Program-made: the position numbers and the translations under genes | Assembly: GCA_016188355.1 (NCBI GenBank) | Contig: JACPHY010000011.1 | Location: 23,219 to 87,218 of the forward strand | Origin: Candidatus Uhrbacteria bacterium | GTDB taxonomy: Bacteria; Patescibacteriota; Patescibacteriia; JACPHY01 | Direction: 5' to 3' | DNA length: 64,000 nt | Notes under the pieces: generated by a model | The model's database searches: none | What the model saw: only the letters and a program-made list of their open reading frames with translations | Told to the model about the DNA's origin: nothing | Shown here: positions 502 to 35,149 of the stretch, piece after piece | Numbering within the stretch: the stretch's first letter is position 1 | How the letters are laid out: each line of letters opens with the position of its first letter

Positions 502-1251
502 TCAGCCGATGAATGCGCCGCGAACAGCAACGAAGCTGACGGGGTCGTCGAAGCGCGGGGCGCAGATCACTGGACTGGATGCCAACGTGTAGAGCGCTGC
601 GATGGAATGGCGCTCTTTCCTCCAAACGGATCCACCGAGCGCGGTCCGAGCATTCCGCATGCGCGTGGGATGCTGGAGGTATCCTGCGATGCCCTCGAGC
701 AGGGAGCAGGGGACGGTGTCATCGGAGATCATGTCACGGACATCGTGCATGGAGTGCTCGGCGAACCCACGGAGATTGGCGCGCATCCAGTACTGGTGGG
801 TTCCGGGGTCGATGGATCCGTATGGAACGAATCCAAGGTTGTAGTCGTCTGGTCTCGTCTCTTTTTCGAGACCGTTCACGAGCACGAATCCTCCGAGCTT
901 CGCGTAGCATCTGGCGGTGAGACGCGCGTCCACGAGCACGAGATTGGGAAACTGGGCGAAGTAGCGGTCGGGGAACTCGGGAATCCGTGGCACGGTCGCG
1001 AGGTACTCCGCAAACGATGTGTACCCGAGCTGATCGCCGATCCCGAGCGTCCAGAGGTGGAAGGCCTGCGTTTCTCGCGGGTCCTTCTTTCCCGGATTCG
1101 TGCCGCCTTCGGTCATGCGGCGGATGAATCCTTGAACGTCCGGTCCGATGCCGGGACCACCCGCCCCGCGATTCGCCTTGCAGATGCGTGCGATTTCTCC
1201 GAGTTGATCCGCGCTCACCTGGGTGAGTGGCTGTTGCCTCTCTTTTGTCAT
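502..1251 (-). CDS. hypothetical protein (about 250 aa)
   Basis: Long ORF on the minus strand. The internal ATG (MTKERQ...) is preceded by a GGAGGAG Shine-Dalgarno sequence. No recognisable motif. Confidence 0.5.
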   Translation of the reverse strand: MTKERQQPLTQVSADQLGEIARICKANRGAGGPGIGPDVQGFIRRMTEGGTNPGKKDPRETQAFHLWTLGIGDQLGYTSFAEYLATVPRIPEFPDRYFAQFPNLVLVDARLTARCYAKLGGFVLVNGLEKETRPDDYNLGFVPYGSIDPGTHQYWMRANLRGFAEHSMHDVRDMISDDTVPCSLLEGIAGYLQHPTRMRNARTALGGSVWRKERHSIAALYTLASSPVICAPRFDDPVSFVAVRGAFIG

Positions 1252-1488
1252 GGCAATCTCCTCCATCCGCGGTACGCCGTTGCGGCAGCACATCCGGAGA
1301 TGTGCCAGCACATTGGTCTCCCTTGGGCAGTGGGTGATTTGGAAATGGACCTGTTCGGGTCCTGCCGTCTCTCACGAAACAGCAGGGTGAGAGTAGCATG
1401 GAGCGTTGCTTGTGTCAATGGATTGAATCATGCAAACGAAGATCCTGCCCAGAGGTGGGCAGGATCAGGTGCGTGTGCGGTCGGTGAA

Positions 1489-1983
1489 TTAGAATCCGTA
1501 CCAGAGGTTCACGCCGGGAGCGATCGCCAAGATCGGTCCGTTGTTGAGAGCGACGTATACGAGGGCACTGGGGGAGAGCGTCCACTGCTTCGTGATGAAC
1601 CACGAGATGCCGCCGCCGGCACCGGCGTAGAAGGTGGCATCTCCGAATGCGCCGCCGAGTTGGTCGTGCATGACGGCGACGGCGGCATCGATGCCGATCG
1701 CGTCATTTACGGGGAAGTCTGCGGCGATCGTTGCCATGAATCCCCAGTAGCCGGTATCGGGGGCGAGCTCGATGCCGACTCCGGGGCTGAGACTCACCCC
1801 ATCGAGCGGGAAGGTGAGCGAGACGCCAAGTCCGGGATAGGCGCCAATGTGCGACACGGACGGCGCGACGCCGGCGAATTCCATCGCCCAGACATTGAGA
1901 CCAAGATCTTGCGCGGCGGCGCGCGTGGGAACGAAGGCTGTGGCCGTGAGGAGAAGGCAAGAGAGCGCGATTGAGCGTCGCAT
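1489..1983 (-). CDS. small outer-membrane beta-barrel protein (OmpW/OmpA-like, 8-strand type) with signal peptide
   Basis: The N-terminus MRRSIALSCLLLTATAFVPTRAAAQD has a signal peptide with an AxA cleavage site. It shows alternating hydrophobic beta-strand periodicity and ends in aromatic ...NLWYGF, typical of an OMP C-terminus. Confidence 0.55.
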   Translation of the reverse strand: MRRSIALSCLLLTATAFVPTRAAAQDLGLNVWAMEFAGVAPSVSHIGAYPGLGVSLTFPLDGVSLSPGVGIELAPDTGYWGFMATIAADFPVNDAIGIDAAVAVMHDQLGGAFGDATFYAGAGGGISWFITKQWTLSPSALVYVALNNGPILAIAPGVNLWYGF

Positions 1984-2638
1984 GGGGAGCTCCTTTTGGT
2001 GGGTGAGAATGAACTGTGAGGGGTAGGCGCGAGCACCGTATCAGGGAACTGTTCCAGAGTCAACGGGAGTTGACATTTTGGCTGCCTGATGCTACGGTTG
2101 CGCCAGCCGATGCGGCAGGAGGTGATAATGACCACGATGCGTTTTCGGTTCAATGTGAATTCCGGTGCGACAGCCGTGACCATGGACACGCGGAATCCGG
2201 GTGAGGAGGATGGAAGGATCCGCGACGTGATCGCGCAGTGTCGCCAAGGTCGCTATGGTCGGCTCAGCGAGCTCGTCGCCTTTTCTCGGCGCGTCCCGAA
2301 CGTGCAGCCGCTTTCGTTCTACGAGGTCGAGCCCAGCGAGTTCGAGCGGTGGCAGCAGGAAGCCGCGCGTACGTCGATCGGCTCCGCCCGGTAGTCTCCA
2401 CGCACAGGCCCCGTCGCTCCATGAGCGGCGGGGCGGTTCTTCTTTTATCTCGAGCGGAACGAGTCCGCGAGTGTAGCCGAGAGATCTCGCCGGGGGAGAT
2501 CCTTCGTCACGGATTCCTCAGGATGGCGAACGTTGGGAAGTATAGCCGAGAGATTTTGCCGCCCGTGCCACCGTCCCATGGTGTGGGCTTCTTCGTCGAA
2601 GATTCCTCAGGATGGCGATCTTGGAGATTCGAAGGAAT

Positions 2639-4849
2639 CTATTTTCGGACTACCTGCGTTGCCTCCTCGAGTCGAAGGCTCAGGAGTTTGGATGCACCTT
2701 CGTCGCCCATGGTCACGCCGTAGATCATGGATGCGCGCTCCATGGAGGAGCGGTTATGGGTGACCACGAGGAATTGGGTGTGCTGGGAGAGATCTTTGAG
2801 AATCTCCGCATAGCGGACGGAGTTTGATTCATCGAGCGCCGCATCGACCTCATCGAGTACCACGAACGGAGATGCGCTGGAGGAGATGATCGCGCAGAGG
2901 AGCGCGATGGCAGTGAGGGCGCGCTCGCCGCCGGAGAGCATGGCGATATGCTTAATGCGTTTTCCGGGTGGCGTCGCTTGGATGTCGATGCCTACCACCA
3001 CGCGCTCGCCGCGCTTCGGGGGTACGTCGGAGGGGGGGATGTCGGGAATGGGGGTGCTAGTTTGTTCCGGCGCCGATTCCTCGATGGGCTCCTCACGGAG
3101 GAGGGTGAGTTTTGCATTGCCGCCACCGAAGAGCTGGCGGAAGTACTTTTCAAAATGCGTATTGATCGTGGCGAATGCGGAATGGAATGCGCGATCAATA
3201 TCGAGCTCCAGTTCGGTGATGACCTGTTCGAGCGACGTGGCGGATTTTTGGAGGTCGTCGGTTTGCTGGGTGAGGAATGCGACGCGTTCCTCGAGTTCGC
3301 GATATTCCGCGAGCGTCTGCTCATCGAGCGTACCAATGGTTGCGAGTTCCCGCTGGAGGCGACCAATGCGGAATTCCGTATCCGTCTCCAGCGGGCCCTG
3401 CGGCGCGGGAAGCGTGCTCGGGTCCTCGGTGCTCGGGATATCGCGCAGGATGGCTTGGCGGAGATCCTCGCGGCGCTGCTCGCATCGCGCGAGTTCAATG
3501 CGACCATCATTCGCCCTTGCGGTGGCCTCGTTGAGGAGTAATTGCTGTGCGCGATAGTTGCGTTGCAGTTCGAAGAAGGCGCCTTTCTTCTGCTGTTCTT
3601 CTGCGTGCACCGCGGACATGCGGCGCTGCACTTCGGTTACTTCGCGTTCCACCTCCCGCAGGGCGGCCTCCGTTTCGGTGAGTTCTGGGGCCGGCGTCCG
3701 TACGTCGGGTGGGGTGCAACGCGTGCGGAGATTTGTGATGCGCTGGTGAATGGTGGTGAGCACCGCGAGGGTGGCGGGCACATCAATGGTGGGAGTTTCG
3801 CGGAGCGAATAGAGGAGCATGTCGATATCCTGGAGTGCGATATCGAGATCCGCGATGAGCGCGGTCGCCGGAAGCGCTTGATGTGCGCCGGCGCGTGTTT
3901 GCGCGGCGTTGCGGAGGAGGAGCATGCGCTCGCGGAGTTCCTGCCGTCGGTGCATGAGCGCTTCGTACGATCGTTGGAGATCGAGAAACGCGTCGCTTTT
4001 TTGTTCCTCCTGCTCCAGCGTCGAGAGCTTGCCCTGGATCTGGTCTACACTCGTTTGGAGTTTACGGCGTTCTGCATCGTGCACTTCCCATGCGGTGCGT
4101 TGCCGTTCCATGAGCCGTGCGAGTTCATGCCAGCGCTGTCCGTGAAATTGTGCGAGCCGTTCGCGGAGCTCTTGTTCGAGTGCATCTCGTTGCTCGAGAC
4201 GTTTCACCTGACGACTCAAGCTGCGGAGTCGCGGGGTGAGTTCCGCGAGGAGCGTTTCGCCCTGGCGGAGGTTCTCGTGCGCGCGCTCGAGTTTGGCGAT
4301 TGCCTGGTTGCGTTTGATTTCCGCTGGTCGGATGCCCGCTGCCTCATCGAAGAACGCCTTGCGATCCGTGGGCGATGCGAGAATGAACTCATCCACCATG
4401 CCCTGCCCAATAATCGAATACGTGCGCTGCCCGATGCGCGCGCCAGCGAGCAGGAGGAGGATGTCTTCTCGGCGGACCTTGTTGCCATTGAGGAGGTACT
4501 CGGCATCACCGGATCGATACACGCGGCGCGTAATGGCAACCTCGGTATAGTCGATGGGTGCGCTGCGATCTTCGTTGTTGAGGAGGAGGGTGACTTCGGC
4601 AACGCCCAGGCGCGGACGTCTCGGCGTTCCGGCAAAAATGACATCTTCCGAGGTTTTCCCTCGGAGGAGTTTCATGGATTGTTCTCCTAAGACCCAGCGA
4701 ATGGCATCGACGACGCACGATTTCCCAGAACCATTGGGACCGACGATGGCGGTGATCCCACGCGATCCGGCGGTGGGGGGGAGGAACTCGAGATTCGTCG
4801 CGTTGGCGAACGATTTGAATCCATTGAGGTCAATGCGTTGAAGCCACAT
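2639..4849 (-). CDS. smc: SMC-family chromosome segregation ATPase (short form, 736 aa)
   Basis: The N-terminus MWLQRIDLNGFKSF...GPNGSGKSCVVDAIRWVLGEQS matches an SMC Walker A head. A long coiled-coil middle follows. The C-terminus LSGGERALTAIALL...VVLDEVDAALDESN carries the ABC signature and D-loop. No obvious hinge; the length is far below canonical SMC. Confidence 0.8.
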   Translation of the reverse strand: MWLQRIDLNGFKSFANATNLEFLPPTAGSRGITAIVGPNGSGKSCVVDAIRWVLGEQSMKLLRGKTSEDVIFAGTPRRPRLGVAEVTLLLNNEDRSAPIDYTEVAITRRVYRSGDAEYLLNGNKVRREDILLLLAGARIGQRTYSIIGQGMVDEFILASPTDRKAFFDEAAGIRPAEIKRNQAIAKLERAHENLRQGETLLAELTPRLRSLSRQVKRLEQRDALEQELRERLAQFHGQRWHELARLMERQRTAWEVHDAERRKLQTSVDQIQGKLSTLEQEEQKSDAFLDLQRSYEALMHRRQELRERMLLLRNAAQTRAGAHQALPATALIADLDIALQDIDMLLYSLRETPTIDVPATLAVLTTIHQRITNLRTRCTPPDVRTPAPELTETEAALREVEREVTEVQRRMSAVHAEEQQKKGAFFELQRNYRAQQLLLNEATARANDGRIELARCEQRREDLRQAILRDIPSTEDPSTLPAPQGPLETDTEFRIGRLQRELATIGTLDEQTLAEYRELEERVAFLTQQTDDLQKSATSLEQVITELELDIDRAFHSAFATINTHFEKYFRQLFGGGNAKLTLLREEPIEESAPEQTSTPIPDIPPSDVPPKRGERVVVGIDIQATPPGKRIKHIAMLSGGERALTAIALLCAIISSSASPFVVLDEVDAALDESNSVRYAEILKDLSQHTQFLVVTHNRSSMERASMIYGVTMGDEGASKLLSLRLEEATQVVRK

Positions 4850-28961: not shown

Positions 28962-31466
28962 ATGGCGAAACTCATCAAACGTACTGCCTCCCGTTCCGGA
29001 TCTCGTCAGGATCCGGAGGCTCCGCGCTCGATTGGTACGGTCGAGCCCATGTCTATTACCCGTGAGATGGAGACATCGTATCTCGATTATGCGATGTCGG
29101 TCATCGTGAGTCGCGCGCTGCCCGATGTGCGTGACGGATTGAAGCCGGTGCATCGGCGCATTCTCTACGCGATGTGGCAAATGGGCCTTCGGTCGAATGC
29201 GAAGTTCCGAAAGTCCGCGGCGATCGTCGGTGAGGTGCTCGGCAAATACCATCCCCATGGGGACACCGCGGTGTACGACGCCCTCGTGCGCATGGCACAA
29301 GATTTTGCCATGCGCGATCTCCTCATTTCTGGGCAAGGGAACTTCGGTTCCATGGATGGTGACGCCGCCGCCGCCATGCGGTACACGGAGGCAAAGCTCG
29401 CGTCCCTTGCGGAAGAGCTGCTGCGCGATATTGAGAAGGAGACCGTGCCGTTCATCCCCAACTACGATGCCACGCATGAGGAGCCGACGGTGCTCCCGGC
29501 GCTCGTACCTAATTTGCTCGTGAATGGCACCGTGGGTATCGCGGTGGGTATGGCGACCTCGATCCCGCCGCACAATCTCGGCGAAGTGTGTGATGCGCTC
29601 ATGCATGTGATTGAGCATCCGGACGCATCCGTGGAGGATCTTCTGCAGTTCGTGAAGGGGCCGGACTTTCCGACCGGCGGCACTATTTTCGATCAAACGG
29701 AGATTACCCAAGCATACGCGACGGGACGGGGATCGATTGTTACCCGAGCGAAGGCGGAGATCGTGGAAGAGGGGAAGGGGACGCAGATTGTGGTCACCGA
29801 GATTCCGTACGCGGTGAATAAGGCGACGCTCCTCGAGCATATTGCGCACCTCGTGCAAGAGAAGAAGATTGAGGGTATTCGCGACCTCCGGGACGAGTCA
29901 TCGAAGGGCGAGGTGCGGGTCGTCATCGATCTCAAAAAAGATGCGTATCCCAAGAAAGTGCTCAATCGCCTGTATCACTCGACCGAGCTCCAGACGACAT
30001 TTCACGTGAACATGCTGGCGATCGTCGATGGGATTCAGCCGCGCATTCTCACGCTGAAGGGTGTGCTCGAGGAGTTCTTGAAACACCGACGTGAGGTGAT
30101 TCGTCGTCGCACGCAGTACGATCTGACGCGCGCAAAGGAGCGGGCGCATATTCTTGAGGGATTGCAGATCGCCATTCTCCACATCGACGACATCATTGCG
30201 ACGATTAAGAAGTCGCAGGATCGCGATGAGGCGCGCGTGAACCTCATCCGGAAGTTTCGACTCACGGAGCCGCAGACGAACGCGATTCTCGACATGCGGC
30301 TCTCGCAGCTCGCGAACCTCGAACGCATCAAGGTGGAAATGGAGCTCAAGGACAAGCTCGCACTCATTAAGGAGCTCGAATCTATTTTGAAATCGGAATC
30401 GCGTATTTTGGGTGTTATCAAGGAGGAGACCAGAGAGCTCCGTGCAAAATTCGGATCCCCACGTCGTACGGAAGTGCGCGTGCAGGGGGTGAAGGAGTTC
30501 AAGCAGGAGGACCTCATTCCGAATGTGCCCGCAATCGTCATGGTGACGCGCGACGGGTATCTGAAGCGGGTGCCGCCAGATACGTTCAAAACGCAGGGAC
30601 GAGGTGGGAAGGGCGTCATTGGGCTCACGACGAAGGAGGAGGATGTGGTGGATTACCTCTTTGCGACCATGACGCATGCGGATGTCCTCTTCTTCACGAC
30701 GCGCGGCCGCTGTTTCCAGTTGAAGGCGTACGATATTCCAGAGGCGAGTCGCACCTCGAAGGGTCAGGCGCTCGTGAACTTCCTCAACCTGTCTCCCGCA
30801 GAGAAGATGTCGGCCATTCTCCCGCTGTCTGATCTTGGCAAAGAGGAGAAGTACCTCGTCATGGCGACGCGACAGGGGGTCGTGAAGAAGGTGGACCGGG
30901 CATCGTTCGAAAACGTGCGTCGTTCCGGGCTCATTGCGATCAAGCTGCGCGGCGATGATCTCCTCGAATACGTGAAGCCCTCCACGGGGCATGATGAAGT
31001 GCTCCTCGTGTCGCGTCAGGGACAAGCGATTCTCTTCAAGGAAAAAGATGTGCGCCCCATGGGCCGTGTTTCTGCTGGCGTGCGTGGCATGAAGCTCACC
31101 CGCGCGAACGATGCGGTGGTGGGGATGGATGTGGTAGGGAAGAGTGCTGCAGAAAATTCCGAGGTGCTCGTGATTATGGATCGCGGGTATGGGAAGCGCA
31201 CCTCACTCGGACAGTACCGAACCCAAGGACGCGGCGGATCCGGTATCAAGACGGCGGAGGTGACGGACAAGACGGGATCGGTGACTACCGCATTCGTCAT
31301 GAACCGCAAGGCGCCCCCGGAAGACCTCATCGTGGTCTCCGCGAAGGGTCAGGTTATTCGTCTTCCGTATAAGCAAATTTCCGTCCTCGGCCGCGCGACG
31401 CAGGGCGTCCGCGTGATGCGGTTCAAGGAAGAAGACGACGAAGTGGCGAGCGTAACGTACGTGTGA
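28962..31466 (+). CDS. gyrA: DNA gyrase subunit A
   Basis: The N-terminus ...YLDYAMSVIVSRALPDVRDGLKPVHRRILYAM... contains the active-site Tyr region. The C-terminal beta-pinwheel repeats are present. 834 aa. Confidence 0.95.
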   Translation: MAKLIKRTASRSGSRQDPEAPRSIGTVEPMSITREMETSYLDYAMSVIVSRALPDVRDGLKPVHRRILYAMWQMGLRSNAKFRKSAAIVGEVLGKYHPHGDTAVYDALVRMAQDFAMRDLLISGQGNFGSMDGDAAAAMRYTEAKLASLAEELLRDIEKETVPFIPNYDATHEEPTVLPALVPNLLVNGTVGIAVGMATSIPPHNLGEVCDALMHVIEHPDASVEDLLQFVKGPDFPTGGTIFDQTEITQAYATGRGSIVTRAKAEIVEEGKGTQIVVTEIPYAVNKATLLEHIAHLVQEKKIEGIRDLRDESSKGEVRVVIDLKKDAYPKKVLNRLYHSTELQTTFHVNMLAIVDGIQPRILTLKGVLEEFLKHRREVIRRRTQYDLTRAKERAHILEGLQIAILHIDDIIATIKKSQDRDEARVNLIRKFRLTEPQTNAILDMRLSQLANLERIKVEMELKDKLALIKELESILKSESRILGVIKEETRELRAKFGSPRRTEVRVQGVKEFKQEDLIPNVPAIVMVTRDGYLKRVPPDTFKTQGRGGKGVIGLTTKEEDVVDYLFATMTHADVLFFTTRGRCFQLKAYDIPEASRTSKGQALVNFLNLSPAEKMSAILPLSDLGKEEKYLVMATRQGVVKKVDRASFENVRRSGLIAIKLRGDDLLEYVKPSTGHDEVLLVSRQGQAILFKEKDVRPMGRVSAGVRGMKLTRANDAVVGMDVVGKSAAENSEVLVIMDRGYGKRTSLGQYRTQGRGGSGIKTAEVTDKTGSVTTAFVMNRKAPPEDLIVVSAKGQVIRLPYKQISVLGRATQGVRVMRFKEEDDEVASVTYV

Positions 31467-31472
31467 TCCCCA

Positions 31473-31505
31473 AAGCGGAGCCCCAACCGGGGCTCCGCTT
31501 TGCTG
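31473..31505 (+). terminator. rho-independent terminator after gyrA
   Basis: aagcggagcccc-aacc-ggggctccgctt hairpin followed by TGCTG. Confidence 0.65.
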
Positions 31506-31539
31506 CCCCGCTTGGTGCGCATCTTTCTTCTGCTCGATA

Positions 31540-32720
31540 TCCTGCCTTGCCTCTGCTCGCTGCCCCGTCCTGCCTCTGCTTGCCATTCTTTCTGTCCCGC
31601 GATCGCCACCCCGTCTTTCTCCTGTTCGCCATCCTGCCTTTATTCTGCTCGCCATCCCGTCTTTCTTCTGCTCACCATCCTGTCTTTCCTCTGTTCGCCA
31701 TCCTGAGCGAAGCGAAGGATCTCACCCCACAGCACACGCAAACAAAAGAGCATCACGATATTGGCGGGAGAGATCCTTCGGCTTCGCCTCAGGATGGCGA
31801 GATGATGATGTGCAATGCGATCGAGCTCGGCATCGTTCCCGTTTTTGCTCGCGATCTTGTCCTTCCCCTGCTCGCCATCCCGTCTTTCTTCTGCTCGCCG
31901 TCTTGCCATATCCCCCCTTCACCATCCTGTCTTTCCTCTGCTCACCATCCTGTCTTTCCCCTGCTCACCATCCTGTCTTTCCCCTGTTCGCCATCCTGAG
32001 CGAAGCGAAGGATCTCACATGATGGCCTCGCCATGGCATATGACGGATCGTGCGTACTACGTCTACATGCTCACCAATGCGGCGCGGACGGTGCTCTATA
32101 TTGGTATGACCAATGATCTCGTGCGTCGTATCCACGAACATCGCATGGGAACGGTCGACGGATTCACGAAAAAGTATCGTTGCGATCGTCTTGTGTATTA
32201 CGAGCAGTACACGACCGCATACGAGGCGCTCGCTCGGGAGAAGGCGCTGAAGGGGTGGACGAGAAAACGAAAATTGGACCTGGTACAAGAGACCAATGCG
32301 ACATTACGAGATCTTTGGGAGGAGATTATTCGGTGACCGTGATACTACCCTTCGCCATCCTGAGGCAAGGCCGAAGGATCTCACGGAATGATACGTGCAA
32401 ACGCCGGAACATCGTAGTTCCCATGGGTGAGATCCTTCGCTTCGCTCAGGATGGCGAAGGGGGTGATGTGGCGGGATGGCGGAAGGGAATGGTGTGGCAG
32501 GGTGACGAAGGGGGGTAGTATGGCAGGATGGCGGGGAGGGTGATGTGGCGGCATGGCGAAATGGGATGATGTGACGTGGAGCGGTGATCCCGTACTGCCG
32601 TCGACTCTCTGCATGTCCTCCATACTTTTGTTCGCCATCCTGTCTTTCTTCTGCTCGCCATCCTGAGCGAAGCGAAGGATCTCACATCACAGCCTCACCG
32701 TGACATATGCCGGATCGTGC
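31540..32720. repeat. repeat-dense region: spacer-less 23-nt tandem repeats (TCGCCATCCYGTCTTTCYTCTGY) plus a 30-nt terminal unit CGCCATCCTGAGCGAAGCGAAGGATCTCAC in direct and inverted copies
   Basis: Three tandem arrays at about 31598-31725, 31868-32018 and 32626-32686. Two long inverted-repeat pairs of the 30-nt unit at about 31696/31770 and 32350/32425. The intact GIY-YIG ORF and its truncated duplicate each start immediately after a terminal unit. Confidence 0.8.
32019..32336 (+). CDS. GIY-YIG nuclease family protein (about 105 aa)
   Basis: YYVYMLTN...LYIGMTNDLVRRIHEHRMG matches the GIY...YIG motif of COG2827-type small nucleases. Confidence 0.85.
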   Translation: MMASPWHMTDRAYYVYMLTNAARTVLYIGMTNDLVRRIHEHRMGTVDGFTKKYRCDRLVYYEQYTTAYEALAREKALKGWTRKRKLDLVQETNATLRDLWEEIIR

Positions 32721-32760
32721 GTTGCTCCGTTCTGTTCTGTCGTGGCTTCGCGGACCCGCA
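32690..32760 (+). pseudogene. truncated duplicate of the GIY-YIG gene 5' end
   Basis: catatgccggatcgtgcgt repeats the first about 20 nt of the intact ORF (catatgacggatcgtgcgt) after an identical upstream 30-nt unit, then diverges. Confidence 0.4.
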
Positions 32761-32814
32761 ATGACCAGACGGGAAAAGAAACCGCACCCAGCCGAGTCGG
32801 CGGGGTGCGTGTGG

Positions 32815-33240
32815 TTACACTTCCGGGAACAGCGTTTCGAGGTGGCGCGCTTCCCCATTGAAGTGTCTTGCGTACAGGTTTCGAATCACGGCGCGGACGA
32901 GGCCTTCGTGGCCGCGCATCGTTTCGGTGGTGAAGTCCGACGCCTGCACGAGGAGCGCGAAGTCCGCCTGTATGCTATCACGCACGAAATCAAATGCGGA
33001 TGGACTTCCACGGCCATGCAGTATCGACTCGTTGAGCCAATCTATTCTCTGGTTGATGCGTTCTAGGAGCAGTACGGCCAGCGGTTTCTTCGAGTTTGCT
33101 TCAGCCAAGGCAGACCTCCATTTGGGTTTGTGTTTGAATATCGCATGAAGATTAGCGTGAATAAGGCCAAAAGTCAAGTTTCGGCCCCACTGCGGGCGTG
33201 TGCCGGCCTTTGTAAGAAGTTCGTGTAGTGTGTGACGCAT
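32815..33240 (-). CDS. HEPN-like protein (possible Rx4-6H motif: RNLYARH)
   Basis: 141-aa helical ORF with a C-terminal R-x5-H, last gene of a six-gene minus-strand operon. Family assignment is tentative. Confidence 0.35.
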   Translation of the reverse strand: MRHTLHELLTKAGTRPQWGRNLTFGLIHANLHAIFKHKPKWRSALAEANSKKPLAVLLLERINQRIDWLNESILHGRGSPSAFDFVRDSIQADFALLVQASDFTTETMRGHEGLVRAVIRNLYARHFNGEARHLETLFPEV

Positions 33241-33298
33241 ATACGAATGCTCCCACCCTCAATGGAGGATGGGAGCTGGGGGAAACGAATTCTGAGCA

Positions 33299-33595
33299 TC
33301 ACAGCAGGGGCGGCGTCGGTCCCTCTGCGTCCGGGTCGAGTTCGTATTCGACGCTGACGATGTCGTCGAGTGCGGCGAGCGCCGTGAGTTTTCCGGCAGG
33401 GACGCAGATGATGGCTTGGCGCGCCTCTCGGAGGAAGCGTCGGAGACTGCCGTCGGCGCTGCGGATGGCCTCGGTGAGCAATTGCTCCGTGGCACTCGAT
33501 CGAACGGTGACCAGGACGGAGATCGGCTCATCGGTGCCCTTGTGCGACATCGCACGAGCTGCGTGTGCACTGAGTTTGTTATGGGCGTTGGTCAT
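33299..33595 (-). CDS. hypothetical small protein (98 aa), possibly ACT/P-II-like fold
   Basis: MTNAHNKLSAHAARAMSH...ISVLVTVRSSATEQLLTEAIRSADGS... Its start overlaps the upstream stop as ATGA. Confidence 0.45.
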   Translation of the reverse strand: MTNAHNKLSAHAARAMSHKGTDEPISVLVTVRSSATEQLLTEAIRSADGSLRRFLREARQAIICVPAGKLTALAALDDIVSVEYELDPDAEGPTPPLL

Positions 33596-33954
33596 GCGTT
33601 CTCCTTGGGGCCATCGTCCTCGAAGAGCGGCGCGCCTCCCCAGAGACGTTTCATGAAGAGCATGGTGTGGACGGGATTGATCGTCGGACGTTGGGGGTCT
33701 GCTGCCTCGGTGAGCAGCGCGCGGTCGATTTTTCGGAGGCGATCCACGATTCTGGTGAGGTCCGATTCGGGGAGTCGCCTCGCGTAGCACACGCAGAGAT
33801 CGAAGAGTTGTGCGCAGCACCACTCGATTTTACCGTGATCCGGATGATCCGGCGGAAGTGCGCGGTAGAGCTCCTGGTGTTGCTCGATTTTGGCCAGAAC
33901 GAGATTGACGGTTTCGTGTATCGCGTTTGCTGCATCATTCGTACGATCGTGCAT
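33592..33954 (-). CDS. hypothetical small protein (120 aa)
   Basis: MHDRTNDAANAIHETVNLVLAKIEQHQELYRAL... Translationally coupled to the next gene by a 4-nt overlap. Confidence 0.45.
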   Translation of the reverse strand: MHDRTNDAANAIHETVNLVLAKIEQHQELYRALPPDHPDHGKIEWCCAQLFDLCVCYARRLPESDLTRIVDRLRKIDRALLTEAADPQRPTINPVHTMLFMKRLWGGAPLFEDDGPKENA

Positions 33955-34025
33955 GGCGTTCCTCTTTTTTGGTGCGTTTGTAGATATCGGCTCATGACCC
34001 GCTGAGCGCGTTGCGATGTGCAGCG

Positions 34026-34256
34026 CTAGCACCGGATATCGGTCACCGGCCGCGGGCCGTCTTCGGTGAGGAGTTCGAGTACGGGCGACGCGAGGTGTGG
34101 ATGGCGCTGCGCACGCTTCTGGAGCTCGCGGAATCGCTGGAGCACCGCATCATTCGACGCATGGGTGGGCAGGATGTGACCGAAGACTACGCCGGCTTGC
34201 TTGCGACTCGGCATGACGATGCGATACCGACCGATCTCGAGTTGAGGTGTGTTCAT
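34026..34256 (-). CDS. hypothetical small protein (76 aa)
   Basis: MNTPQLEIGRYRIVMPSRKQAGVVFGHIL... Its start overlaps the upstream stop as ATGA. Confidence 0.4.
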   Translation of the reverse strand: MNTPQLEIGRYRIVMPSRKQAGVVFGHILPTHASNDAVLQRFRELQKRAQRHPHLASPVLELLTEDGPRPVTDIRC

Positions 34257-34549
34257 GGCTGCTCCTTTGAGTGTGGGGATCGGGAAGATGTGCGTGGATG
34301 GATCAGGTACCAGTAGATCAGCGCGCCCGCAATCGCACCGAGCGTGAGTGGGATGAGCTCGATCGGGGGAAGTGTTGCTCCCGTGCAGCGGGTGAATCCG
34401 TACGTCATGAGCATTGCCGCGCTCACGAAAATCACGAGGAGTGCTTCTGGGCGAAAACGGCGTCGCCACTTCCATGCGCACCATCCGGAGATGGTGATCA
34501 GGAGCAATGTGCTGATCCAATAGGAAATGCAGAGGAGCGCGGTACGCAT
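34253..34549 (-). CDS. small membrane protein (3 TM)
   Basis: MRTALLCISYWISTLLLITISGWCAWKW...LIELIPLTLGAIAGALIYWYLI. Confidence 0.45.
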   Translation of the reverse strand: MRTALLCISYWISTLLLITISGWCAWKWRRRFRPEALLVIFVSAAMLMTYGFTRCTGATLPPIELIPLTLGAIAGALIYWYLIHPRTSSRSPHSKEQP

Positions 34550-34561
34550 GTCTTCTCCCGA

Positions 34562-34963
34562 TTATGATGATCCTTGGGTGCCACGTGCGACGAGTCGTCG
34601 TGCGTCTTCGAGGAGATCGTGGACGGTGCGCGGAATGCCGGTGGCACTGGTGCCGGTGATGAGGGATCCATCTTGCGCGGGAAATGCGCCAACGCTGCAT
34701 GCGAAATCCACGGCGAGCCGGAACCATACACTGTCGGCGTCGATGCCTTCTCGTGGTGGGACGACGTCGTGCCACGTTTCCGCACAAATGGTCGCCGCCT
34801 CATCCGGCGTGCAGTGATCGCGAATGAGGGTGGCCCCCTCCTGCTCGCGCCCCGGGGTGCGCACCAGTCGCGCGCCCTCGTCACAGTAATCGATGCCGGT
34901 TACGGTGCAAGCCGATAGTATGCCGCACGCGATGCAGGCGCTTATGATTGTTCCGATCGACAT
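34562..34963 (-). CDS. putative lipoprotein, Cys-rich (134 aa)
   Basis: MSIGTIISACIACGILSAC has a lipobox-like LSAC. Six further Cys. First gene of the operon. Confidence 0.4.
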   Translation of the reverse strand: MSIGTIISACIACGILSACTVTGIDYCDEGARLVRTPGREQEGATLIRDHCTPDEAATICAETWHDVVPPREGIDADSVWFRLAVDFACSVGAFPAQDGSLITGTSATGIPRTVHDLLEDARRLVARGTQGSS

Positions 34964-35149
34964 CGCGTCCTCCTTTTTGGATTGGGAATGTGCGCGGAGA
35001 GCATACCAGGGGCGGTGCTGATGGTCAACAGAGCGTATGCGGAATTGTCGGATATCGCTATTCATGGCACGATAAAAACACCAGCGGTTGACCGTGTGAT
35101 GGGTTTTCTACTACCCTAGACCTGAGTAACCGCAATCGACTTCACTTTT

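Follow-up and report, generated by a model that had tools for sequence, protein, structure and literature searches.

The stretch analysed here, called the window below, comprises 64,000 nt from Candidatus Uhrbacteria, a bacterium of the Candidate Phyla Radiation (CPR, Patescibacteria; assembly GCA_016188355.1, contig JACPHY010000011.1, positions 23,219-87,218 of the forward strand). Between gyrA and rpmF, positions 31519-32723 consist almost entirely of repeat DNA surrounding one small gene. Judged from its sequence, this is very probably an Ssn locus, in which the gene for a 98-aa single-domain GIY-YIG nuclease is embedded in its own cognate hairpin repeats (SRM). Ssn proteins are single-domain GIY-YIG nucleases of about 94 aa (CDD family cd10448) described by Chenal et al. 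(Nat Commun 2025, PMC11893778); we reached that study through variant repeat strings in the flanks of homologues, a literature search with the window's own repeat string having found nothing. The locus comprises four exact and two variant copies of a 30-nt unit, two inverted doublets, four spacer-less arrays, the GIY-YIG gene and a 38-nt relic of that gene. The assignment is carried by protein homology, intact catalytic residues, locus architecture, a family-wide association between gene and repeats, covariation within the repeat stem and rapid local change. The repeat variant, with its GCC head and tandem G·A mismatches, the CPR host and the arrays of half-sites are new with respect to Chenal et al., where neither tandem arrays nor Patescibacteria are mentioned.

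The ssn gene (32040..32336, + strand) encodes a protein that is 100% identical to a 98-aa NCBI Uhrbacteria protein. Its GIY-YIG domain (Pfam, 2.4e-17) covers residues 13-85 of the 105-aa reading and is not accompanied by a second domain. The first-pass annotation, made from the letters of the window, had let the gene begin at ATG 32019, directly behind a repeat unit. The unit indeed ends at 32018, but this ATG is not conserved, the closest relative (genome L001) having ATCACC at that place; given also the NCBI annotation and the lengths of the homologues (93-100 aa), we take ATG 32040 as the start. A tblastn search of PLSDB gave a match to two N. gonorrhoeae chromosomes (E 5e-20), in which the corresponding open reading frame (ORF) has 94 aa, carries Y6, Y17 and E64, which Chenal et al. 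mutated, and is flanked by canonical copies of the Neisseria NTS repeat. In a pairwise BLASTP comparison, the window protein is 47% identical to this SsnA orthologue without gaps (E 4e-30), and its residues Y9, Y20 and E67 align with Y6, Y17 and E64. The partner in this direct comparison is the gonococcal orthologue, not meningococcal SsnA itself, and with it the E value lies below the limit by which Chenal et al. recognise Ssn proteins (E < 1e-10 to Neisseria SsnA). Residues Y9, Y20, R30, H34, E67 and N86 are all present in the window protein; across 25 homologues Y20, R30, H34, E67 and N86 are invariant, and Y9 is nearly so (at least 90%).

An NCBIfam search with the protein gave no match. 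A search of PDB sequences returned remote UPF0213 and UvrC matches only, so that no solved Ssn structure is available. In a large protein search with about 8000 close homologues, no named Neisseria protein stood among the matches listed; the route to the SsnA orthologue was PLSDB, where two 2.17-Mb N. gonorrhoeae chromosomes (NZ_CP119140.1 and NZ_CP119142.1; locus L286) are filed as plasmids. In addition, ATG 31815 opens a 173-aa frame (31815-32336) that runs through the second repeat array into ssn without a stop; given the 23-nt period of the array and the homologue lengths, this frame is almost certainly spurious.

The 30-nt unit CGCCATCCTGAGCGAAGCGAAGGATCTCAC occurs exactly at 31696 (+), 31989 (+), 32427 (-) and 32656 (+), with no copy expected (0 in 100 shuffles), which bears out the initial observation of a repeated unit associated with the gene. 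Within the 64-kb window there is no further copy at up to 3 mismatches, and a diverged relative lies at 2497-2530. SRM3 (31989..32018, +) stands in the sense orientation 21 nt 5' of the ssn start codon, and SRM5 (32427..32456, -) stands inverted 91 nt past the stop codon. The two are inverted partners across ssn (inverted repeat I1, with 31982-32018; arms of 37 nt, 95% complementary). SRM1 (31696..31725, +), also an exact 30-mer, is the left arm of doublet 1, the right arm being SRM2 (31770..31800, -; inverted repeats I4 and I10), a variant with the mini-hairpin GGCGAAGCC. Doublet 2 has as its left arm the variant SRM4 (32352..32382, +; I4 and I5), which carries the mini-hairpin GGCAAGGCC and begins 16 nt past the stop codon, and SRM5 as its right arm. 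SRM6 (32656..32685, +) is the remaining exact copy. The inverted pairs reported from first inspection are real: at 31696/31770 and 32352/32427 the arms are separated by 38-44 nt and, folded as single-stranded DNA (ssDNA), the doublets reach -35.2 kcal/mol (z -8.6) and -40.8 kcal/mol (z -10.0), respectively.

In each full repeat, a 3-nt head (GCC) precedes a 9-bp stem, ATCCTGAGC/GCGAAGGAT, whose centre carries two tandem G·A mismatches; GAA forms the loop, and a C follows the stem. The stem and the C right after it are present in all window copies. The head is GCC in 8/8 window copies (six at the locus, two in a smaller cluster at 2497-2620) and in the L001 copy.

We searched species-representative genomes and IMG/VR with a pattern of 25 nt of the unit in which two stem positions were left free. 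The pattern is found in 32 IMG/VR contigs and in at least 120 stretches of species-representative genomes, belonging to Acidobacteriota, Nitrospirales, Chloroflexota, Bacteroidales, Clostridia, Verrucomicrobiota, Planctomycetota, Cyanobacteria, Saccharimonadia and several Proteobacteria. Among the matches listed, to which all counts of motif copies given here and below refer, the two free stem positions form a Watson-Crick pair in 161 of 163 copies (96 T-A and 65 C-G, besides 1 T·G and 1 C·A). An inverted partner lies within 200 nt of 78 of the 154 copies scored for it, and a nuclease gene is nearby in only 2/152 motif-selected loci; hence, most motif copies are far from the gene. The partner arms often carry longer hairpins in place of the central GCGAAGC mini-hairpin, which matches the finding of Chenal et al. 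that the loop is dispensable and tolerates extensions.

The reverse approach started from 80 metagenome loci (46-59% identity) and 8 viral loci chosen by protein similarity alone. A strict detector for the repeat type of the window identified 81 repeats in 26 of the 80 loci, as compared to about 1 in shuffles, almost all of them just before the start codon in the sense orientation or just after the stop codon and inverted. Loci without a strict match carry variants of the same design (GTCATTGCGAGG...GAAGCAATCTC, GTCATTCCCGCGAAAGCGGGAATCC, GTCACCCTGAAC...CAGGGTCTC). With a general grammar (a GTC head, a stem of at least 5 bp and a C directly after the stem) scored in 77 protein-selected loci, a sense repeat is found upstream in 54 (70%), an inverted repeat downstream in 49 (64%) and both in 39 (51%), the shuffled flanks giving about 3, 4 and 0.2, respectively. 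Measured from the repeat, the start codon is at a median distance of 36 nt and the stop codon at 11 nt. These counts reproduce, on an independent sample, the published figures of 71% of homologues with at least one motif nearby and 42% with motifs on both sides (PMC11893778). Repeats and GIY-YIG gene therefore belong together, as was first proposed from the window, where the gene is bracketed by inverted units as it is in those 39 loci. Proteins that share a repeat class are also more alike (55.2% versus 50.5% identity, a difference reached in 0/2000 permutations). This fits enzyme and repeat evolving together, with shared ancestry as a confounder.

Two further features of the repeat family were observed in other genomes. 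In Acidobacteriota (L039, L057, L077, L114, L134, L149), doublets are enclosed by a larger palindrome, CAGGCTGCGGAAAAA...TTTTTCCGCAGCCTG, that has the look of a composite element resembling a miniature inverted-repeat transposable element (MITE). A near-identical copy of this palindrome occurs in a contig labelled Saccharimonadales (L053), through either binning contamination or transfer. In gene calls, the hairpin repeats appear translated, as peptide tails or short ORFs, with strings such as ...DSSPRSE, ...DPSLRSG and ...EILRFAQDGE (C-termini of P0024 and P0118; window ORFs 32180-32518 and 31640-31909). The repeat family can be recognised by such strings in hypothetical proteins.

What the window protein does can be proposed from its characterised relatives. 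SsnA of N. meningitidis binds the NTS hairpin repeat CGTCATTCCCGCGMAVGCGGGAATCYRG only as ssDNA and in one sense, and cuts a few nt upstream; characterised Ssn proteins ignore double-stranded DNA and RNA. Cutting depends on the three nucleotides that precede the palindrome, and binding on the C that follows it; cleavage persists when two separate half-sites supply the two sides of the stem. DNA that bears the repeat transforms N. meningitidis less well because of this system (PMC11893778). By analogy with these results, from which both the biochemical activity and any effect on transformation would be carried over, the protein would bind the hairpin once the DNA is single-stranded, during replication, repair or uptake of transforming DNA, and would place a nick a few nt 5' of the hairpin in strands of one sense only. 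In Neisseria, incoming single strands are shortened in this way and recombination is lowered around repeat-rich loci. We infer that the window protein cuts the repeats around its gene, and in this CPR bacterium its targets may be single strands that are entering the cell or being replicated.

Several points weigh against the assignment to the Ssn systems. The window copies have a GCC head where 154 of the 163 family copies have GTC, and GCC is the head in only about 1% of the copies elsewhere. Since the same three nucleotides control cleavage in N. meningitidis, GCC-headed sites could be bound but poorly cut, or the specificity of the enzyme could have shifted. In addition, the published SRM string, HGTCWYN(0-2)YYVSBRHN(0-5)WNVSBRGN(0-2)RNCYNB, matches 0/6 of the locus repeats. 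Elsewhere in the window it matches twice, inside gyrA (31234-31265) and at 54477-54507, off the repeats and to all appearance by chance. As implemented here, the string has a match in 8 of the 80 protein-selected loci. It misses a repeat class that is nearly identical across many phyla, and current surveys may under-count these systems. Nearest-neighbour folding does not put the expected solo hairpin first, so that support for this hairpin is comparative, not thermodynamic. Finally, a role in natural transformation is known for Neisseria only. The alternative TTCGC/GCGAA stem, preferred when single-arm DNA is folded, was rejected: its 5' half is unconserved in other genomes and the pyrimidine/purine covariation is left unexplained.

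Relatives of the window show how old the locus is. The ssn gene directly follows gyrA in three Uhrbacteria genomes, namely the window, L001 and L002, with identities to the window of 93.8% (L001) and 81.4% (L002) for GyrA and of 89.8% and 69.4% for Ssn. The shared position and these identities suggest an old residency, and the sequences fit a long-resident, vertically inherited gene under purifying selection, with a ratio of nonsynonymous to synonymous divergence (dN/dS) of 0.25 between the window and L001. The gyrA ratio between the window and L002 was left out as invalid, owing to an unaligned indel. One repeat family occurs in all three genomes, in differing arrangements. Upstream of ssn, L001 has a single 23-nt unit and one full unit as compared to eight units, a doublet and a second array in the window; downstream, it has at least two minus-strand array units before the contig ends, about 145 nt past the gene. 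In L002, a doublet is found upstream, and a 21-nt array and a doublet downstream. Around a more distant homologue with other neighbouring genes (L003), there is simply one unit on one side and its inverse on the other.

An alternative to a resident Ssn locus is an active selfish mobile element. Here, an autonomous cassette, insertion-sequence-like or homing, would have given the doublets as non-autonomous MITE/REPIN-like derivatives and the local copies by recent transposition. We regard this as unlikely. The gene does lie between inverted repeats like an insertion sequence, and Chenal et al. themselves compared the NTS-ssnA-NTS layout with insertion sequences and with REP/RAYT. However, the GIY-YIG nuclease is the only gene between the arms, with no transposase or integrase, and the activity demonstrated for the family is site-specific ssDNA cutting at hairpins, not transposition (PMC11893778). 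The occurrence of a near-identical 25-nt motif in many phyla and in viral contigs suggests horizontal spread, and about half of the motif copies elsewhere (the 78 of 154 above) are gene-less inverted doublets, yet the scarcity of the gene beside motif-selected copies (2/152) weighs against a mobile cassette. Nor are there target-site duplications at the doublets or the gene: the sequences outside the arms of doublet 1 read CCTCTGT and GATGATG, without a direct repeat, and the flanks of doublet 2 extend the palindrome. A second repeat cluster does lie 29 kb off, but tandem amplification on the spot, with the flank found there, accounts for the growth of the arrays at the locus. The position next to gyrA is kept in three genomes, down to 81% GyrA identity. 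The synonymous divergence (dS) between the window and L001 is four times lower in ssn than in the adjacent gyrA (0.20 versus 0.81), as a recent arrival could explain, but dS is also low in gyrA over its last ~900 nt, where nucleotide identity rises from ~82% to ~92% (window 30500-32336 versus L001 6900-8297). A recombination tract fits this better than the insertion of a cassette. Hence, some recent exchange is likely, in the form of a homologous-recombination tract over the 3' end of gyrA and ssn rather than an insertion. The first-pass suggestion of a selfish cassette that had moved in is not upheld, given the shared position, the dN/dS value, and the lack of target-site duplications and of a transposase. 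A single copy with the repeats conserved as ordinary intergenic sequence in relatives had been named there as the opposite case, and this describes the locus in part: the window holds one copy and the locus is kept in relatives, but the number of repeats shifts sharply (one unit in L001 as compared to eight).

Less probable again is a function at the RNA level, with the hairpins as terminators, mRNA stabilisers or translational regulators, REP-like, and the nuclease incidental. The doublets are very stable (z -8.6 and -10) and intergenic, after gyrA and after ssn, as such elements might be, but no T-tracts follow the hairpins and a terminator scan was negative at them. No Rfam family is found either: the gathering scan of the window returned tRNAs elsewhere, and over the long hairpins a permissive scan of 31400-32850 yielded nothing beyond weak, chance-level similarity to models of microRNA precursors. 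An AAGGA just before ATG 32019 could be masked by an ATCCT/AGGAT stem; however, this ATG is unconserved and the real start, 21 nt further on, has no such motif. The one T·G combination among the 163 copies would suit RNA pairing, but SsnA of N. meningitidis does not bind the RNA version of its repeat (PMC11893778). Moreover, the repeats on either side of the gene keep a fixed orientation to it, and conservation reaches beyond the stem to the head and the trailing C, which points to recognition by a protein of a strand-specific site. A hammerhead-like reading of CUGAG...GAAG was also rejected, the CUGANGA box being incomplete and Rfam having found nothing.

The spacer-less arrays consist of half-sites of the same repeat. 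Array 1 (31522..31695, +) has about 7-8 units of 23 nt (TRF period 23, 8.0 copies over 31522-31705; family D3) and array 2 (31846..31988, +) about 6 units of 23 nt (TRF period 23, 6.6 copies, 77% matches over 31846-31998). Array 3 (32447..32573, -), 5' of SRM5, has 5 units of about 26 nt (TRF period 26, 5.0 copies; family D4). The short array 4 (32617..32665, +), of about 2 units, runs into SRM6, array and repeat together covering 32617..32685. The first-pass annotation had counted three arrays of 4-5 copies each. Abutting 23-nt arrays are indeed present, but with 8, 6.6 and about 2 copies, the last being 32617-32665, and the minus-strand array, with its 26-nt units, had been overlooked. In the plus-strand arrays, each unit joins a 12-nt flank, TCTTTCYTCTGY, to 11 nt from the 5' side of the hairpin, TCGCCATCCTG; array 3, on the minus strand, has another flank of local origin, CACATCACCCCCT, before the same TCGCCATCCTG. 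As the flanks differ between arrays, the arrays probably arose separately at each repeat. At up to 1 mismatch, the half-site TCGCCATCCTG occurs 21 times in the window as compared to 2.7 expected, with 15 copies at the locus and 2 near 2500-2620.

Every array is located 5' of a full repeat, whichever strand carries that repeat. Across all loci collected, 25 of the 364 full repeats have at least 2 extra 5' half-sites within 120 nt upstream, as compared to 8 downstream. Such arrays recur in unrelated genomes, with periods of 19-27 nt and unrelated flank sequences. The sole unit of L001 has its orthologue in the first unit of array 1. The half-site arrays are local amplifications in which 12-15 nt of 5' flank and the hairpin's 5' half were multiplied together, and the pattern is seen again in unrelated phyla. 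Nested insertion of repeat into repeat was rejected as their origin, there being no matching arrays of 3' halves. Beside gonococcal ssnA (L286, ~500-545), a partial 5' half-site, CATCATTCCCGC, is seen 19 nt 5' of a full NTS, in the same flank-plus-half-hairpin pattern.

The relic of the 5' end of ssn (32686..32723, +) comprises 21 nt of leader and the first 17 nt of coding sequence. It is identical to 32019-32056 at 30 of 38 positions and to the L001 gene start at 31 of 38, and the homology ends at ~32723. What had been described as a 5'-truncated duplicate of the gene near 32690 is a true copy, but one that keeps the 5' end and is 3'-truncated. Local duplication, as first proposed, is well seen here: the arrays were amplified in place, and an array, a unit and the first 38 nt of the gene were copied at 32617-32723. 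As to the route, local amplification around SRM3 and SRM5 would have given the two gene-less inverted doublets and the four half-hairpin arrays, and a partial duplication would have left the relic.

The arrays sit on the side where Ssn enzymes nick, which raises the possibility, to our mind a rather doubtful one, that they are a by-product or a working part of Ssn action. In one version, nicking by Ssn and slipped repair may keep making new half-sites, and the enzyme would thereby shape its own repeat landscape. In another, the arrays could be sites that are cleavable only when paired in trans, since Ssn also cuts stems whose two sides come from separate half-sites. That the regular 23- and 26-nt periods of four spacer-less arrays reflect a degenerate CRISPR-like or other functional tandem array, with the 23-nt repeat itself functional, for example as protein-binding iterons, is scarcely credible, because the units are only 70-77% alike and abut without spacers (which excludes a CRISPR array), no cas genes are nearby, each unit couples a flank to a 5' half-hairpin, the flank differs between arrays, the closest relative has one unit against eight, and similar arrays with unrelated flanks stand beside the same hairpin in unrelated genomes.

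Compared with named systems, the locus is closest to Ssn/NTS-SRM. Common to both are the single-domain GIY-YIG protein of about 95 aa, with 47% identity to the gonococcal orthologue and the same Tyr/Tyr/Glu catalytic spacing, the bracketing of the gene by oriented hairpin repeats that also occur gene-less and clustered, and a repeat grammar in which a 3-nt head precedes a palindromic stem with a dispensable loop, and a C follows the stem. In contrast, the head here is GCC instead of GTC, the tandem G·A mismatches and the GAA loop escape the published string, the host is a CPR bacterium and tandem 5' half-hairpin arrays are present. The dRS3/NIME repeats are likewise short, palindromic, clustered between genes and mixed with other short units, and NTS contains dRS3. 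However, dRS3 reads ATTCCC-N8-GGGAAT and the window repeat ATCCTGAGC-GAA-GCGAAGGAT, and NIME units measure 50-150 bp as compared to 23-nt half-sites.

REP/REPIN/RAYT systems (IS200/IS605-type Y1) also have a single-copy gene between inverted hairpin repeats that are dispersed solo and as doublets and recognised as single-stranded hairpins. Unlike them, the window enzyme is a GIY-YIG protein and not of the transposase-like HUH/Y1 fold, with no strand transfer known for it, and its repeat is common to several phyla, whereas REPs are species-specific; membership was rejected and the layout is analogous only. GIY-YIG homing endonucleases (I-TevI, Seg) share the catalytic domain and suspected selfishness, but have a separate DNA-binding domain, cut double-stranded DNA and occur sporadically. 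The window protein is a bare catalytic domain at a conserved locus, the same in all three related genomes examined, and membership was rejected here too. Proteins of the UPF0213/YhbQ type (PDB 1YWL, 1ZG2) are alike in size and fold class, but they form a different subfamily with remote similarity only (E 1e-4 and 4e-3). We know of no hairpin repeats associated with them.

The left neighbour gyrA (28962..31466, +; Pfam DNA_topoisoIV 3e-164 with GyrA C-terminal repeats), which holds the same position in L001 and L002, is followed by a perfect 14-bp hairpin (31471..31502, +; inverted repeat I8) that is conserved in L001. This hairpin marks the left edge of the variable repeat region, the window and L001 being collinear up to 31544 (alignment A3). 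Downstream of the locus, rpmF and nusB are found both in the window and in L002. The interval between ssn and rpmF (32815-35100) contains minus-strand ORFs without a Pfam match, and 0/6 of the neighbouring ORFs tested had any such match. One of these ORFs, 32815-33240, has no similarity to the gene at the equivalent place in L002, so this segment varies between relatives. The second, smaller repeat cluster (2497..2620, -), recognised by an arm detector, by its sequence and by exact half-sites at 2519 and 2608, lies between ORF 607-1974 (+) and ORF 2639-4849 (-). It contains one full copy, GTTCGCCATCCTGAGGAATCCGTGACGAAGGATCTCC, and one degenerate copy, each with the CGCCATCCTGAG head and each followed by the direct repeat ATCTCTCGGCTAYACT.

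Overall, these results place an Ssn/hairpin-repeat system in a bacterium of the Candidate Phyla Radiation. The half-site arrays offer a concrete, testable handle on how such repeats multiply. Every new pair of enzyme and repeat is a candidate tool for cutting ssDNA, and the present pair has a natural GCC head variant. CPR bacteria are generally considered to rely on DNA and nucleotides taken up from outside. Given this presumed reliance on imported DNA, a nuclease specific for ssDNA could be relevant to them.

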